Position numbers and translations under genes: made by a program | Notes under the pieces: generated by a model | What the model saw: the letters and a program-made list of their open reading frames with translations, nothing else | Database searches by the model: none | What the model was told of the DNA's origin: nothing | Origin: Alloascoidea hylecoeti | Lineage: Eukaryota | Direction of reading: 5' to 3' | NCBI GenBank assembly: GCA_001600815.1 | Contig: BCKZ01000003.1 | Location: 872,581 to 936,580 of the forward strand | DNA length: 64,000 bases | Shown here: piece after piece, positions 904 through 47,214 of the stretch | Layout: the number at the start of each line of letters is the position of its first letter | Position numbering within the stretch: the stretch's first letter is position 1

Positions 904-1396
904 TTATATTTCACGATTACAAAATGATTATTAACGCTTATTAATACTTTGAACTTACCCCCGGTATAACCTTAAAAAAATTAAAATTTTGTACTAAAAT
1001 TAAAAATTGATTTTGTTGATAGAATTATTCTCTTTTATTTTCTCTTATTATTTATTCTTTTAAAATGATATTAAAGGGTTGAAACCGCTTTTTTCGTTTC
1101 TTTAGTAAGCATCATTTTGAATAATCATATTATGATTATTGTTTTAATTTTTGTGTTTTAAAAATGTTGATCTTTCATATATAAATTAGCTTGCCACTAC
1201 ACGTATGTATCATCACTTAACTTATCTTGGCTTTATCATGATTTGATATCTATATTTAATAAGCTTTGTACTGCCCTCTTTTTCAATTGCAATCGAACTA
1301 ATTATGACATAAATGACCATGTAAGCAACACCCATTCACCATCCTTGGGCTTGATAAATAAAGATTAATTAGTCCTCTTTTTTTACCTCGTCTTTT

Positions 1397-4153
1397 ATGT
1401 TCCTCGTACTTATTATACTGATAGGCCTGCATTTGCAATGGACCCTGGCTTACTCAACCTCCTCCAATAATCATGCCCTGACCTCCGATTCCATAGCCCA
1501 TCTAACTAACGTCTCTCTTACTCACCTCAATCCTTCCGATATCCAACTTGACATTGCCATTTCTGGTACATCCACTTCTCATCACTTTTCAAATTTGAAT
1601 AAAAGGTGGTATGTCCTATCGAACCCTCAAACGAAAAATAATGTTAATGACCAGCTAAAACATGTCAAATCACAATACGGCCATTGGTTATATAAATATT
1701 TAACTACTAATTCAACTATTAGAGAAGTGCCCCCTGATCAAAATGATAATTCTTTAAATTTCAGGTTTTATTTATCAGAAAATAATTATTTAAATGAAGA
1801 TGGTATTGAAATATTTCATTTAGACAAAGATGGTAATATGGTCAAATCAAGTTCAAATAATGATTATAGTACAACTAAAACGATTAGTTATAAAGGTCAA
1901 GCATTTAGAAGGTTTCAATACTATAACCTTAATGACGATAATCAAGAATTAAAATACTCTCAAAAACACGTTGGTTGGGCCCGTTTAACGATAACTTATG
2001 ACTCAACGAGTAGAAATTTAAATGAAAATAATATAATATCAATTAAAGGTTCTTGGCATGTTTCCGATACAACATTAGGATCAATTGATTCTTTATATTC
2101 AATCGATTCAATTAATAATTTTAGATCATCTCATTATAATGATGAAATAACTTCAAATTCAATTGATGAAAAACAATATGAAAATGATTTAGATGATGAA
2201 GATTTAATTGTTTGGCGTGATGTTGATATGGATAGAAATTTTGATTTTTTAACAAAAAATATTTTAAATGATGATTATGATTTTAATAAATTTGAATCTG
2301 AACAAAGTTTGATTAATACTAAAAAAGAAACTAAATCTATAATTAAAAGAGAATTAGATTATTTTAATACTTATTCTTTTAATAATCATATCAATAATAA
2401 TAATAGGCTAATTAAAAGGTCTGGTGATGATAGTGATACTGGGAATTCAGGTTCGGCTCATTCAAATTTATATTCTTTAATTGGTTCAACAAATGGATGT
2501 CCAAAATTTAGAAAATTTGTAATGGTTGGTGTTGCTGTTGATTGTAACTTTATTGCAAACTATAATAATAATCAATCTCAAATACGTGAAAATGTTATAA
2601 GTTTAGTTAATACAGCCTCTGAAGTTTATGATACTTCATTTAATATTACATTAGGTTTAAAACAATTGGTACTTGTTAATAGTTCAACTTGTTCAAATTC
2701 TCCTTCATGGAATGTCGCATGTTCTTCGATGGGTTCAATAAGTGAGCGTTTAAATGAATTTACAACTTGGCGTGCAAAACAAACTTCTGATACAATTGGT
2801 GTTTGGTCTTTATTAACTGATTGTGCGCAAGATTCAGTTGTTGGATTATCATGGATGTCAACATTATGTGAAGTTGGAACTTTAGATGGAAGTAATTCAA
2901 CTATTGCTGCAACAAATGTAATTAGTCATACTCCATATGATTGGGCTGTTTATTCTCATGAAGTAGGTCATACTTTTGGTGCTGTCCATGATTGTACTTC
3001 TGATACTTGTTCTTCAGGTGCTGATTCCTCAAATCAATGCTGTCCATTATCATCAGGTACTTGTAGTGCTGGTGGTAAATATATTATGAATCCAAGTACT
3101 GGAGCTCAACAATCAGGTTTTTCATCTTGTTCAATTGGAAATATATGTGACTCTTTAACAACTATGAATTCAACCTGTGTAGTCAATAATAAAGATGTTA
3201 CTGGTCTTGTAACTGAAGGTATTTGTGGTAATGGTATAGTTGAAGATGGTGAAGAATGTGATTGTGGTGGTACTGAAGGTTGTGCACAATCTTCTTCAAA
3301 ATGTTGTGATCCAACAACTTGTAAGTTCATAAATAGTGCAACATGTGATGATATAAATGATTCATGCTGTGACAAGTGTCAATATGCATCATCATCAACT
3401 ATTTGTGAATCTTCAATTGGTCCTTGTTCTCCTGTTGTTTATTGTAATGGTAATTCTTCACAATGTCCTTCACAAACCCTTTTAAAAGATGGTACAACAT
3501 GTTCACTTTCAAATTCATCATCAACTGATTTAAAATGTGCTTCAGGTTATTGTACATCTCGTGATTTACAATGTGTAACGATTTTTGGTTCAATGTCTGT
3601 TTCAACAACTCTTTCAAATGGTACATCAGTTTCCTTAAATATTACAGAATCTTGTGGTGATGATAGTTCATGTTCAATGGGTTGTCGAGATTCAAGATTT
3701 CCTAATGTTTGTTTCCGTAATAGTCAAAATTATCTTGATGGTACTGTATGTGGTAGTACCGGATCATGTAGTAGTGGTCGTTGTAAAGGTGGAAAAAGTT
3801 CATTTTTCGGAAATGATGGTGATAGAGGATTTTTAGGAAGTTGGGCATCAAATCATAAAACTTTGTTAATTGGAATACTTGCTGGAGTTGGTGGATTGTT
3901 ATTGGTTTTATTCTTAATTTCTTTAATTCGCAAATCATTAAGACCAAAACCAACAAATCAAGTTATAATACCGATGAAACCAATGATGCCTCCTCCATCA
4001 TATTCAGCTCAGCCACCACAGCAACCTTATTACAACTATAACAATAATAATGATTATTATCCTCAACAACATAATGGGACATATAATAATGATTACAATT
4101 ATAGCAATAACAATATACTACAACCACAAAACACATACCGACCAAATTATTAA
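1397..4153 (+). CDS. ADAM-family disintegrin metalloprotease (fungal ADM-B/Mde10 type), type I membrane protein
   Basis: Signal peptide, prodomain ending in dibasic LIKR, zinc motif HEVGHTFGAVHD, Met-turn YIMNP, disintegrin start CGNGIVEDGEECDCG, Cys-rich domain, TM helix LLIGILAGVGGLLLVLFLISLI, and Pro/Tyr-rich tail. Confidence 0.93.
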   Translation: MFLVLIILIGLHLQWTLAYSTSSNNHALTSDSIAHLTNVSLTHLNPSDIQLDIAISGTSTSHHFSNLNKRWYVLSNPQTKNNVNDQLKHVKSQYGHWLYKYLTTNSTIREVPPDQNDNSLNFRFYLSENNYLNEDGIEIFHLDKDGNMVKSSSNNDYSTTKTISYKGQAFRRFQYYNLNDDNQELKYSQKHVGWARLTITYDSTSRNLNENNIISIKGSWHVSDTTLGSIDSLYSIDSINNFRSSHYNDEITSNSIDEKQYENDLDDEDLIVWRDVDMDRNFDFLTKNILNDDYDFNKFESEQSLINTKKETKSIIKRELDYFNTYSFNNHINNNNRLIKRSGDDSDTGNSGSAHSNLYSLIGSTNGCPKFRKFVMVGVAVDCNFIANYNNNQSQIRENVISLVNTASEVYDTSFNITLGLKQLVLVNSSTCSNSPSWNVACSSMGSISERLNEFTTWRAKQTSDTIGVWSLLTDCAQDSVVGLSWMSTLCEVGTLDGSNSTIAATNVISHTPYDWAVYSHEVGHTFGAVHDCTSDTCSSGADSSNQCCPLSSGTCSAGGKYIMNPSTGAQQSGFSSCSIGNICDSLTTMNSTCVVNNKDVTGLVTEGICGNGIVEDGEECDCGGTEGCAQSSSKCCDPTTCKFINSATCDDINDSCCDKCQYASSSTICESSIGPCSPVVYCNGNSSQCPSQTLLKDGTTCSLSNSSSTDLKCASGYCTSRDLQCVTIFGSMSVSTTLSNGTSVSLNITESCGDDSSCSMGCRDSRFPNVCFRNSQNYLDGTVCGSTGSCSSGRCKGGKSSFFGNDGDRGFLGSWASNHKTLLIGILAGVGGLLLVLFLISLIRKSLRPKPTNQVIIPMKPMMPPPSYSAQPPQQPYYNYNNNNDYYPQQHNGTYNNDYNYSNNNILQPQNTYRPNY

Positions 4154-28755: not shown

Positions 28756-29130
28756 TGATCAACTGACAGACTCCAAAACAGTTTGAAATGAAATACTTAA
28801 GCCAATTCCGTGAGATCGCGTGGGTGGCAACGAACGGAAAAGGAAGGCTGCTTGTAGGGAGATGGAAGATCCAAGTCAAGTAAAGCGAAAAGGAGGTTTA
28901 TGAATAGTATTAGTCAGAAATATGTCAGCATACAAAGAATCTCTTTTTTGTTTAAAAAAACACTATTTAACTAAAATGTATAAATAACATTAAAATATAT
29001 AGCTATGTAAATTTAACCTGTTTATCTTTTTTCTTTCTTTTGTCTTTTCCTTTGTTTAATAATTCAAATGATTTCACAGGAAATAAGGTCAGTAATAAAA
29101 CAAATTATTAATTATCAAAAGTAATAAAAT

Positions 29131-29190
29131 AAAAAATAAAAAATAAAAAATAAAAAATAAAAAATAAAATAATAAAATAATAAAAATTAT
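29131..29190. repeat. A-rich (AAAAAAT)n simple repeat
   Basis: Five perfect AAAAAAT units (29131-29165) followed by degenerate AAAATAAT units, downstream of the RRM gene. Confidence 0.8.
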
Positions 29191-29329
29191 ACCAAAAATA
29201 AAAAATATAAATTAAAACATAATAAAAATAATAAAAATAATCATTATCTAATTCAGGATTACAATTCATTATTATAAATGGAAAAACCCCTTCATTATCA
29301 TATTGTTTTAAAATATTTATCTTTTAAAT

Positions 29330-43777: not shown

Positions 43778-46700
43778 TTAAGAATAAAATTTGGTTAATA
43801 GCGGGCCAAGAAACTTGGGTTCACTTGAGAGAACATACTCCGTTGATGTATTGAAATACACAGGAAAAGACGGTACAACAATAGTCGAAGTTTTTGACCT
43901 TGTAGATCTTCTTTCAACTTGTTGCAATTGGACTTTAGCGCCATCATCAATTTTTGAAGAATAATAGGATTCATAAGAGGATTCTTTTTTCGAATAAATT
44001 AGGTTTTTCTTGTTATGTTTATCATTTACTTTCGCAATATAACGAATTATTGGTGCAATTTCTTTGATAAAATTACCAGTTGAACAAGTTATTAATATAG
44101 AGTTTGGATAAAGTGGATTGATCGCATTTGAAAGCATCAATAAATATGAATCAGAAGCTTCACGATCAAGCGTTCGTTGTCGAGATAAACATTGAGTCAT
44201 ATTTCTAGATTTGTATAAATCAATACAAAATGACCGAATATCATTCGAATTTAATTGATTGTTGTCAATATCATTAAGTTTTTCCTGTAAATTTAATAAT
44301 GCATCCGTAAATTCATTTATTCCTAAACCATTTTCAATAATTTCAACCTTTGGTTTTAATTTCATATTTAAATATTTCGAAATATTTGTTTCATAAAATA
44401 AGGAAGGAATAGTTAATTGCCTACCTTCATCAATTTGGTTTACACCAATCAATTTATCGAGTTCTTCATCATCATGTTTATAACCAATATGAGGAACCAA
44501 TGAATTTGATTTATTTTCTAAACAATCTATTACTGATTGAAAATCTTCAACGTAACATAATGACTCAAAATCATCAATTGAAAGTCTATCAACAATAGTT
44601 TCAGTGGAATCAACTGATGATTCTCTCACATCTTCTTCTTTTATATCTTTATTCATATCGTGAATCAGATTATTAATATTCGAACCCCACAATTGTAAAT
44701 CTGCTAAAGAGGCTCTAAAATCACCTTCTCTAATCTTGACCAATTTTAAAATATCTTCAAAATTTACTGAAACAATTCCTTCATTTTCAGCAATTTCACA
44801 TAGCCTCTTTGCTTGTTTTTCATATTCTGCTATTTCAAAGTCAACAACAGCATTATTTGAATAAGCTAAGTCAAGTATATTTTTAGGAATTAATGATAAA
44901 TCTTGACATGTTAAAATAATTGGACGTTTTGAAACTTCTAAAAGTTTTTCAATCATTGGCCAAAATTGAGTATCTTCATCATATAAAATATCAACATCTT
45001 CAAATAAAATAATTGCTTTTTGAAACTCATTCCTCTTACTATTATTATCGCTATTATTAATATTGTAAAGTATAGTGTCAGTACTATCTGTATCGATATT
45101 ACTTTCACTTTCGATTTCAGTTTCTGATTCACCACCATAAAACACATCAACATCCACCAATTTCGGATTAACTAAATGATTTGTAGATGCATTGATTAAT
45201 GTATCCAATAGATTCCTTCTTGATCTTTTCTCACCGGAATTAATTTCAAAAACATAACCTTTAAATTCACGACATGATGAATAAACTGAACTTGTTTTAC
45301 CAGAGCTACTTCTACCATTTATAATTAACAATGGTATAAAATTTTCACCATTTTCTTCCTCACAATATTCTGAATCATTCGTATCATCATCGATGAAATC
45401 ATCAAGTGCATAACCATTTTTAGACTTATTATTATTACTAGCATTTGTTGACACGTCTGAATTGTAATCAATAACTCTAGATTTTTTATTATTCTTTGAT
45501 AATTTTTCAAATGATTTTGTTATCCAATTTCTAACAAATATCGATTTCCCACCAAGTGTTATTACTTGGGATGCAGTTTTTGGACTGTATTTTTCGCACC
45601 ACATTAGCTGACTTGGTTCCACATTATGATTTTTATCATAATCATCTTCTCCCTCTTCTTCGTCATCAATATTATCGAGATCTACCCAGTCTAGTAATAC
45701 CTTAACATCAGGTCTTTTGAATTTGTGAATGTTTCTTTTTCTAAAAATCTTAGGATATTGTTTTCTAATTTTTAAATTCTTCTCAAAACCATGAACATGG
45801 TATTCGAATTTATTGGGAAAGGGTGTTTCTAAAATTCTATAAGGGTCATTTTTAGAATTTTTTTTACCAAACAATGAACTTTTTGTAAAATCATATGTTG
45901 ATGCTTTTTTATTATTGACTTTTGGAAGAGCTAAAAAAATATGTTAGTTATAAAAGCGAACTGAATGGGGGAGATGTTTTAACTTCATACATGTTTCAAT
46001 TTTTAAATCGGATGATTTTCCCATTAATAAATCTTTTGCTGATATTAGACTATTGTTATCATTCTTATTGTTATTGATATTTTCATCTATTACATTTCTT
46101 CTTTTGAGACCATTTACTTTAAACTTATAACTCCCATTTTCTACTTGTGTAAGAATATCTGGTGGAATTTTTAATGTAACATTAAATGATTTAGGAACGT
46201 AACTTTGTTCTAAATAAAAAAAAAGGTTAGTTATTAGATCTTTAAAAGTGAAGGATGTCTTAACTTCATACGTGTTTCAATCTTTGAATCAGATTTCCTC
46301 ATCAATAAATCTTTAGCTGATATTAAAGTTTTATTATTGTCGTTGTCATTAATATTGTCATTCGTTATTATATTTCTCCTTTTAAGACCGTTTACTTTGA
46401 ATTTATAGCTTCCATTCTCTAATTGTAATAAAATATCCGTTGGTACTTTTAATACAACATTAAGTGATTTAGAAACGTTACCTGATTTTAATTTTCTCCG
46501 TTTAATTGATATAGACTCATCATCATTAAAATTTGGAATATATGATAAGACATGAGCTGGGACTTTTAAAGTAACTGGAAATGATTTTCGATTTGAATTT
46601 TCCTTTTTATTACTATTATTGTTATTCCGTTTAGGTTTTGATGTATCTATTACAGGTTTCCGATATCCTGATAATATGTCCTTCATACTTATACCAGTTG

Positions 46701-47214
46701 ATTTTACTTTCGCGTTTTTATCATTATTATCATTATCCTCATTATTATCATCACTTAAATCTAAGTCGATGATAACCTTTTGATCATCATCCTTGGACAA
46801 TAAGATGTCCGTTGTCTCAATGATCGGTTCTTTTATTAGATTCTTACGTATACCATATCCTATTAAATCGTTAATTGAAACACTTTTTGGAATATTATCA
46901 TTGTTATTATTATCATCTACGATAGTTTCTGGGTTTTGAGAGTTATTTATTGTCATATTTTTAAATAAAGAGCCAATTAATGTTGATTGATTTTTTTTCG
47001 AGCGCGTCTGATTTCGCGAATGTGCTTCATTAGTTGATGATTTCTTTTTTGATTCTTCATACGTTTTAATAGATTTTTTCGTAATAATTTCTTTTTTACT
47101 AAATTCATTTGAATTATCTTCTTCTGATGATGAAGGAATGTTATTGTTATTTAATTTAGTTGACCATGACTTCCCATTATTATACGGCATGGTGAAATTT
47201 TCAGCTGTCATCAT
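43778..47214 (-). CDS. ELG1: Elg1, large subunit of the alternative RFC PCNA unloader, 3 exons, 1104 aa
   Basis: Exons 47214-46272, 46209-45991 and 45930-43778 splice in frame over two GTATGA...AACTAAC...TAG introns (46210-46271, 45931-45990). AAA+ motifs WCEKYSP, GRSSSGKTSSVY, FEINSGEKRS, ILFEDVDILY.ED..FW and SKRPIILTC. Confidence 0.85.

Follow-up and report, generated by a model that had tools for sequence, protein, structure and literature searches.

An old tandem duplication of an exon plus its intron in ELG1 of Alloascoidea hylecoeti probably multiplied two short motifs of the Elg1 N-terminus

In a 64,000-nt stretch of DNA from the budding yeast Alloascoidea hylecoeti (contig BCKZ01000003.1, positions 872,581 to 936,580; hereafter the window), a minus-strand gene was found to carry two tandem copies of a unit of about 278 nt that is made up of coding sequence and a predicted intron. 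This gene is ELG1, which encodes the unloader of the DNA clamp, as had been proposed in an earlier note on this DNA that was made from the letters: when its exon 3 was compared with PDB it matched S. cerevisiae Elg1 (8thb_A, E 1.7e-26) and ATAD5 (E 2.8e-15), and the only 3 matching sequences were Elg1 and two ATAD5 constructs, with no Rfc1, Ctf18 or Rad24 among them. A Pfam search with the three ELG1 frames gave no family on any of them, and an ESM Atlas search gave a single match at 0.75, which is at best a lead. The explanation that we regard as probable, by a good margin, is that an old tandem duplication of an exon plus its intron in ELG1 amplified two short motifs, here called A and B, and that the intron was carried along as a passenger.

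Positions below are those of the window and all ELG1 features lie on the minus strand. Exon 1 (46272..47214) begins with an ATG at 47214 or 47211, encodes a low-complexity N-terminal region and ends in phase 1. It is followed by the predicted intron 1 (46210..46271, 62 nt), which has the donor GTATGA, a branch-point-like AACTAAC at 46232-46226 and the acceptor TAG. Exon 2 (45991..46209) is 219 nt long, has phase 1-1 and encodes one motif B and one motif A, and the predicted intron 2 (45931..45990, 60 nt) again has the donor GTATGA and the acceptor TAG, with AACTAAC at 45949-45943. Exon 3 (43778..45930), to which the PDB matches belong, encodes the RFC-like AAA+ core and the C-terminus. Both predicted introns are of the GT-AG type, start with GTATGAAGTTAA and have AACTAAC 12-16 nt before the final TAG. 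Copy 1 of the unit (46210..46487, 278 nt) consists of the last 216 nt of exon 1 and intron 1, and copy 2 (45931..46209, 279 nt) consists of exon 2 and intron 2. When the window was compared with itself the two copies were 74% identical over 200 ungapped nt at a spacing of 278 (repeat D1), and with Tandem Repeats Finder the same repeat, with a period of 278, 79% matches and a score of 671, was the top of the 55 rows for the window, the next one scoring 157. The units stand head to tail, their coding parts are in the same frame and the duplication adds 73 residues. Its breakpoint is the 3' splice site, where TTAA of exon 1 lies opposite the TTAG that ends intron 1. When both introns are removed the frame is open to the natural stop and encodes 1,104 aa, and when intron 1 or intron 2 is retained a stop is met after 326 or 402 aa, respectively, intron 2 having an in-frame stop within its branch-point motif. 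Therefore, the full 1,104-aa Elg1 requires the removal of both introns. When exon 2 is skipped, with 46272 joined to 45930, the frame is also open and encodes 1,031 aa.

The two unit copies are identical at 51 of 70 aligned residues, and over the 70 aligned codons pS was 0.48 and pN was 0.14, which gives a dS of 0.76, a dN of 0.16 and a dN/dS of 0.21 (Fisher p 1e-5; bootstrap pN/pS 0.16-0.53). Because dS is 0.76 and dN/dS is 0.21, the copies are old and are both translated under constraint, and since both are translated under constraint it can be argued that both introns, whose junctions are predicted, are cut. The earlier note had described two tandem units of about 279 bp, homologous introns of 62 and 60 nt, a 219-nt middle exon of phase 1-1 that can be skipped without a change of frame, and two copies that were kept open despite many substitutions. 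All of this was confirmed, the introns as predictions of the GT-AG type, with the units now measured at exactly 278 and 279 nt, their ends extended to 46487 and 46209, and purifying selection shown by the dN/dS that it had asked for. The chance that the duplication is an artefact of assembly is practically negligible, because the copies differ at 44 coding positions with synonymous changes enriched and because the same split recurs in another assembly that differs slightly from this one. The exon-1 product there is the same (1 substitution) and ends in the same read-through of intron 1, the exon-3 product (6 substitutions) is separate, and this supports the split although copy 2 is not directly displayed.

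The sister introns are both in phase 1 and both follow the same four residues. They are identical at 16 of their first 17 nt (46271-46255 versus 45990-45974), which reaches past the six donor bases, and from nt 7 to the branch point their alignment beats 4983 of 5000 shuffles (17 of 5000 reach the score), and from nt 18 to the branch point they can no longer be aligned. This 16/17 identity at the intron start, compared to a 48% difference at synonymous sites, may be due to an extended donor preference, to local gene conversion or to chance. The duplicated unit occurs once in the 24.8-Mb genome of this yeast, as a 621-nt search returned only the locus itself and no paralogue. When the 18-nt intron start was searched in the same genome with 2 mismatches allowed there were 5 matches, 2 of which are the ELG1 introns, and the control gave 4. 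An introner-like family of repeated introns was thus ruled out, the intron start being not above the control level and the 621-nt search finding only itself.

What the two units have in common besides the intron is one motif B and one motif A each. Motif A was written as [VIT]-[ST]-A-K-D-[LIF]-[LF] and motif B as S-[LYF]-x-V-T-L-K-[VIL]-P-x-x-x-L-x-x-I. In unit copy 1 motif B is at 46441..46470 and motif A at 46303..46323, and in unit copy 2 they are at 46163..46192 and 46025..46045, respectively. The weaker upstream copies that had been noticed earlier are also there: one older motif B at 46558..46587 and two older copies of motif A, copy 1 at 46861..46881 and copy 2 at 46672..46692. When a profile of motif A was built without this protein, unit copies 2 and 1 scored 19.1 and 18.2, older copy 2 scored 16.7 and older copy 1, a weak one, scored 2.1. 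The three copies of motif B, which the repeat comparison had picked out (the older one as D5), scored 20-28 bits with a profile that was likewise built without this protein, and the next window scored 0.2 and the training median was 28. For motif counts, 16 proteins with N-termini of fewer than 150 residues were taken out of 152 Elg1-family proteins, which left 136 including this one, many of them from filamentous fungi without the motifs. In these 136 N-termini motif A occurred 69 times compared to 3.6 expected from shuffles, and motif B occurred 77 times compared to 8.9 expected. The copies per protein were 0-4 for motif A and 0-3 for motif B, and this Elg1 with 4 and 3 is at the top of both ranges. 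Residues outside the patterns were also conserved: motif B is preceded by S in 40 of 74 instances and has L at +12 in 51 of 74, and motif A has K three positions ahead of it in 33 of 65. Other yeasts gain copies independently, within single open frames, as in one protein with four motifs A (P0072), in another with a visible tandem of motif B at residues ~215-300 (P0039), and in two loci with several motif copies each (L007 and L009). Because other yeasts reach several copies without introns, multiplication of the motifs is a habit of the family and the intron a passenger.

The earlier note had taken the duplication to amplify a short hydrophobic motif in a region that in S. cerevisiae carries SUMO-interacting motifs (SIMs) and PCNA-interacting motifs (PIPs). 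That short N-terminal motifs were multiplied stands, but an amplification of SIMs or PIPs is not supported. The simple pattern scan that it had called for found no canonical SIM and no PIP match in the duplicated unit. The sole SIM-like match of the N-terminus, at aa 147 (46759..46779), where a hydrophobic core lies beside acidic residues, is outside the unit, and no canonical PIP was matched. In S. cerevisiae Elg1 there are SIMs at I28, I93 and I121/122 and a distorted PIP without measurable effect, as described in PMC5389545. The S. cerevisiae N-terminus is like the one studied here in being orthologous, long and rich in short motifs, and an S. cerevisiae-type protein (P0131) matches motif A twice, at residues 6 and 71, positions that differ from those of the SIMs. 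The SIMs and the PIP are not the duplicated motifs, and P0131 has no good motif B. In the part of the literature that was searched no description of motifs A or B in fungal Elg1 was found.

Several points weigh against the explanation by an old, motif-amplifying duplication. Both splice junctions are predictions from sequence. The patterns for motifs A and B were drawn up once this protein and four homologues had been viewed, and the totals of 69 and 77 include the 4 and 3 of this protein itself. No close relative was found by a word search (11 matches), by a full HMMER search or by metagenome scans, of which one gave 0 loci and another gave 26 distant loci (22 of the 26 were inspected); the best non-self Elg1 matches were 29-41% identical, near-identical records aside, and so the state with a single unit and a single intron was not observed.

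These points lead to the question whether the introns are spliced and, if so, whether exon 2 is always included. Three metatranscriptome contig sets from wood decay, searched at 85%, gave scattered pieces of 27-40 nt, none of them at the junctions, and are uninformative on splicing. If there were no splicing, the N-terminal frames would be separate or dead and Elg1 would start inside exon 3, or a -1 ribosomal frameshift would bridge intron 1. Gene callers did break the locus into separate calls (P0013/P0014 and P0163), no stop interrupts the exon-2 frame across all of intron 1 (ORF 45944-46276), and an in-register T_TTA_AAG heptamer lies at 46246-46240 (minus strand), at which a shift would join exon 1 to exon 2. 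This heptamer is probably due to chance, and a shift at intron 1 would leave the in-frame stop of intron 2 unsolved. Furthermore, the exon-3 frame has its first ATG at residue 114, bordering the AAA+ core, purifying selection acts on exon 2, which bears motifs that are conserved in the family, and both intervening pieces have retained donor, branch point and acceptor while their middles diverged. We therefore give this reading, in either form, very little credit.

Scarcely better, in our estimate, is the chance that exon 2 is a regulated cassette whose skipping would yield the 1,031-aa Elg1, which lacks one copy each of motifs A and B, and would thereby tune the binding of partners. With exon 2 skipped the frame stays open, the donors of both introns hardly differ (16/17 nt), and exon skipping does occur in Yarrowia. 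However, among the at least 88 alternatively spliced genes described for Yarrowia in PMC2911113, skipping was found in 4 and intron retention in 76. The two introns are both short with equal and intact signals, which would favour each being cut on its own. Moreover, the symmetric phase and the 3n length of exon 2 are what any surviving duplication of an exon plus its intron forces, and since this symmetry is automatic it is no sign of regulated skipping. Most likely both introns are spliced constitutively. Apart from this, a cryptic donor candidate, CAG|GTAACG at 46484-46476 (minus strand) with the donor at 46481, was seen in copy 1; joined to 45930 it would remove both units in frame, but it is weak as it has no G at +5. 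A cryptic acceptor at 45919 also gives an open frame.

The explanation by duplication also raises the question what kind of intron gain this is. Internal gene duplication that copies an existing intron, or tandem exon duplication, was reportedly dealt with by Gao and Lynch in 2009. The intron-gain literature separates copies of existing introns from gains with new splice sites, as stated in the Table 1 footnote of PMC3443670, and the predicted second intron was copied from one that already existed and is not an intron with new splice sites. Where the earlier note spoke of intron gain by intragenic duplication, the duplication is thus real but the extra intron was copied along. The case is like internal gene duplication as given in PMC3443670 in that the units are head to tail within the gene, the copies are in frame and the intron number rises by one, and it differs in nothing of kind. 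The ELG1 event is a known kind of duplication in a new instance. In the gain named after Rogers, a tandem duplication of an exon segment containing AGGT, known from vertebrate ATP2A1 and potato RdRp (PMC3443670, PMC4974935), a tandem duplication also adds an intron, but there, according to these two sources, exon sequence supplies the new intron, whose splice sites are new, and the protein stays as it was. In ELG1 the splice sites were copied, neither junction has AG|GT and 73 residues were added, and gain of the Rogers type was ruled out on these grounds.

A probable course of events is that a tandem duplication at the DNA level copied about 278 nt, from a phase-1 site in exon 1 to the end of an existing intron. 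The breakpoint has a TTA microhomology, which hints at slippage or unequal crossing-over. The result would have been two sister introns and a symmetric middle exon with the frame kept, as the unit stops at the 3' splice site and the length of its coding part is divisible by three. The copy would have been retained because the disordered N-terminus of Elg1 tolerates, and probably gains from, more of motifs A and B as presumed docking sites for partners, and the extra copies would raise avidity.

This leaves the origin of the parent intron. It could have been born locally as a templated copy of the span around its own insertion site, by break-repair insertion or by overwriting with spliced cDNA, and then duplicated, a gain in two steps of which the DNA would still bear the trace; we think this unlikely. 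Intron 2 matches a 21-mer that spans the junction at 16 of 21 positions without gaps, which is reached by 2 of 3000 shuffles, and over its full length it can be aligned with -12 to +45 around its spliced junction; depending on which of five scoring schemes is used, 9-100 of ~3,095 windows from the 64 kb score as well. The intronless older copy 2 of motif A in exon 1 runs, with no intron between, into eight residues that resemble the start of exon 3, and this was the top one of 484 windows. In addition, the metagenome scans gave four complete yeast-like ELG1 loci (L006-L009) that each consist of one uninterrupted frame, and several filamentous-type ELG1 loci from metagenomes have a long N-terminal part that is likewise one open frame. 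The similarity was, however, found after the fact, and the sequence is AT-rich. For intron 1 by itself there is no significance, since 387-1628 of ~3,095 windows reach its score, and introns 1 and 2 jointly are matched by 33-343 of ~3,095 windows. When intron 2 was shuffled and compared with the whole coding region, 95 of 300 shuffles did as well as the real sequence. Since the later copies already differ by a dS of 0.76, little of an older trace would be expected to survive. Besides, in one other yeast clade 6 of 9 proteins, on contigs of 8-31 kb, were called short at the N-terminus, and residues 423-441 of an Elg1 from another yeast (P0085) read like an unspliced phase-1 in-frame intron near the position of ELG1 intron 2, ending 36 residues before the conserved anchor HV[RH]G compared to 43 in this ELG1, as judged from proteins only. 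Because of these short calls and this intron-like stretch the parent intron may be ancient.

Two other candidates were rejected in this connection. The split calls P0295/P0297 of another yeast were not accepted as introns since they reflect frameshifts within a stretch of lysine codons. The idea that a copy of motif B became intronized was also discarded: the read-through of intron 1 beats 4987 of 5000 shuffles but scores -5.3 with the motif B profile, of which the training minimum is 0.4, and the read-through of intron 2 scores -17. By eye, intron 1 also looks like motif A in a different frame, an example of how readily such motifs are mimicked by AT-rich DNA.

As to what the motifs bind, the likeliest role of motif B, put forward tentatively, would be that of a beta-strand ligand of an ET domain of the Bdf1/Bdf2 or Taf14 type. 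The consensus given for Taf14 ET ligands is hydrophobic-x-hydrophobic-basic-hydrophobic-basic-hydrophobic, and tandem motifs raise the affinity of Tfg1 about 30-fold (PMC7442819). Motif B agrees with 6 of these 7 positions, and its three copies in this protein are hydrophobic at 1, 3, 5 and 7 and basic at 6, an agreement that is circular for the orthologues because these positions are in the pattern. It is like the ET ligands of Taf14 and BRD proteins in having an alternating hydrophobic strand with a lysine and in standing in tandem copies, and it differs in that position 4 is mostly Thr, in the helical tail that follows it, with conserved L at +12 and I at +15, and in that the fungal Elg1 motif is known from sequence only. 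The genome of this yeast has three ET proteins, two of which we take from their domain content to be of the Bdf type and one of the Taf14 type. A homologue search with the Bdf1 ET domain returned only a 100% identical protein. When a complex of a Bdf-type ET domain (L003) with the exon-2 peptide was predicted without an alignment, the score was 0.12 against a mark of 0.34, and as the controls were not folded this says nothing either way. The ET domains of BRD2/3/4 bind the N-terminal half of human ATAD5 and restrain PCNA unloading (PMC6878991, PMC8080817). By analogy, and with a likelihood just below that of the role of motif B itself, fungal Elg1 N-termini may bear motif B as a repeated ET-docking motif, so that the BET control of PCNA unloading known for ATAD5 would extend to yeasts. 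Taken together with this, and no more likely, the motif would have been missed because S. cerevisiae Elg1 lost it, and the yeast studied here would have come to three sites by duplication.

Motif A could be a counterpart of the BAZ1B-binding motif of ATAD5, for which we see only a slim chance. The B1 motif of ATAD5, residues 264-270, binds the N-terminal region of BAZ1B that contains the WAC domain (PMC11615311), and it shares with motif A the register V-S-x-x-acidic-hydrophobic; the genome of this yeast has two WAC-domain genes. In these two genes (L038-L042; G000 C10, C11) the domain is interrupted by probable introns. The WAC domain of Itc1 binds short helical epitopes (PMC7968928). The other ATAD5 motifs that are described in PMC11348035 do not match motifs A or B.

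There is also evidence that speaks against both assignments. Position 4 of the Taf14 consensus is basic (K/R) in 14 of 74 orthologue copies of motif B and T in 47 of 74, and in the three copies of this protein it is T, V and T, none of them basic. In the supplement search and in part 1 of 4 of the table for the S. cerevisiae Elg1 pull-down (PMC6258251) Bdf1, Bdf2 and Taf14 were not present, a negative that is limited by the lack of a good motif B in the S. cerevisiae-type protein. The position that corresponds to the required Y267 of ATAD5 is Ala in 50 of 65 motifs A, both unit copies included, and at the F270 position there is F in 14 of 65. Itc1 and Isw2 stand below ribosomal proteins in that same table, in rows 124 and 151 of 319 with background ratios of 4.1 and 3.3, and they were rejected as partners of motif A.

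With regard to the host, GUA1 of the window is 78-81% identical to that of named yeasts, and CTG is read as Leu (in 116-119 of 119 GUA1 homologues). In a tree of 40 Elg1 proteins made with a quick method this Elg1 is on a long branch between two large groups and its placement is unsure. The lineage had been called intron-poor. This has to be qualified, since introns were needed to restore the frame in 5 of 19 protein-coding frames of the window, ELG1 with its two among them, compared to about 5% of genes with introns in hemiascomycetes (PMC4202332), and the intron signals are loose, and the host is not very intron-poor. Among the other introns modelled in the window, six in all, the donors are GTAAGT, GTATGC, GTATGT, GTAAGC, GTATGT and GTTAGT and the branch points vary, and because these introns vary in both, GTATGA and AACTAAC of ELG1 are unexceptional. 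A gene at 25330-23661 (minus strand), which we take from its sequence to be PFK2/FBP26-like, has three introns (74, 138 and 63 nt), internal exons of 29 and 44 nt and an open spliced frame of 464 aa. Single introns, all on the minus strand and with an ATTAAC-type branch point, are at 43401-43328 in GUA1 (GTAAGC) and, in genes presumably ANP1-like and XRCC4-like from their sequences, at 54372-54221 and 32076-32025 (GTTAGT). Elsewhere in the window an A-rich array at 29117-29247 (plus strand) has about 17 copies of a 7-nt unit between a VPS35-like gene and an RRM-protein gene, and a 926-codon frame at 1373-4153 (plus strand) encodes a putative ADAM-type metalloprotease with disintegrin and membrane segments, a family that is to our knowledge absent from S. 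cerevisiae.

As an intron event, the duplication in ELG1 is of modest importance: it is a clean and datable case in which the intron number of a budding yeast rises by copying, with breakpoints that can still be read. More useful is that it points to two conserved motifs of fungal Elg1 that vary in copy number and are distinct from the known SIMs and PIP. Should motif B indeed bind ET domains, the ATAD5-BET brake on PCNA unloading could be studied in yeasts as a simple model, and if, as is most improbable even when that is granted, the skipping of exon 2 were also controlled, splicing would set the valency of docking.

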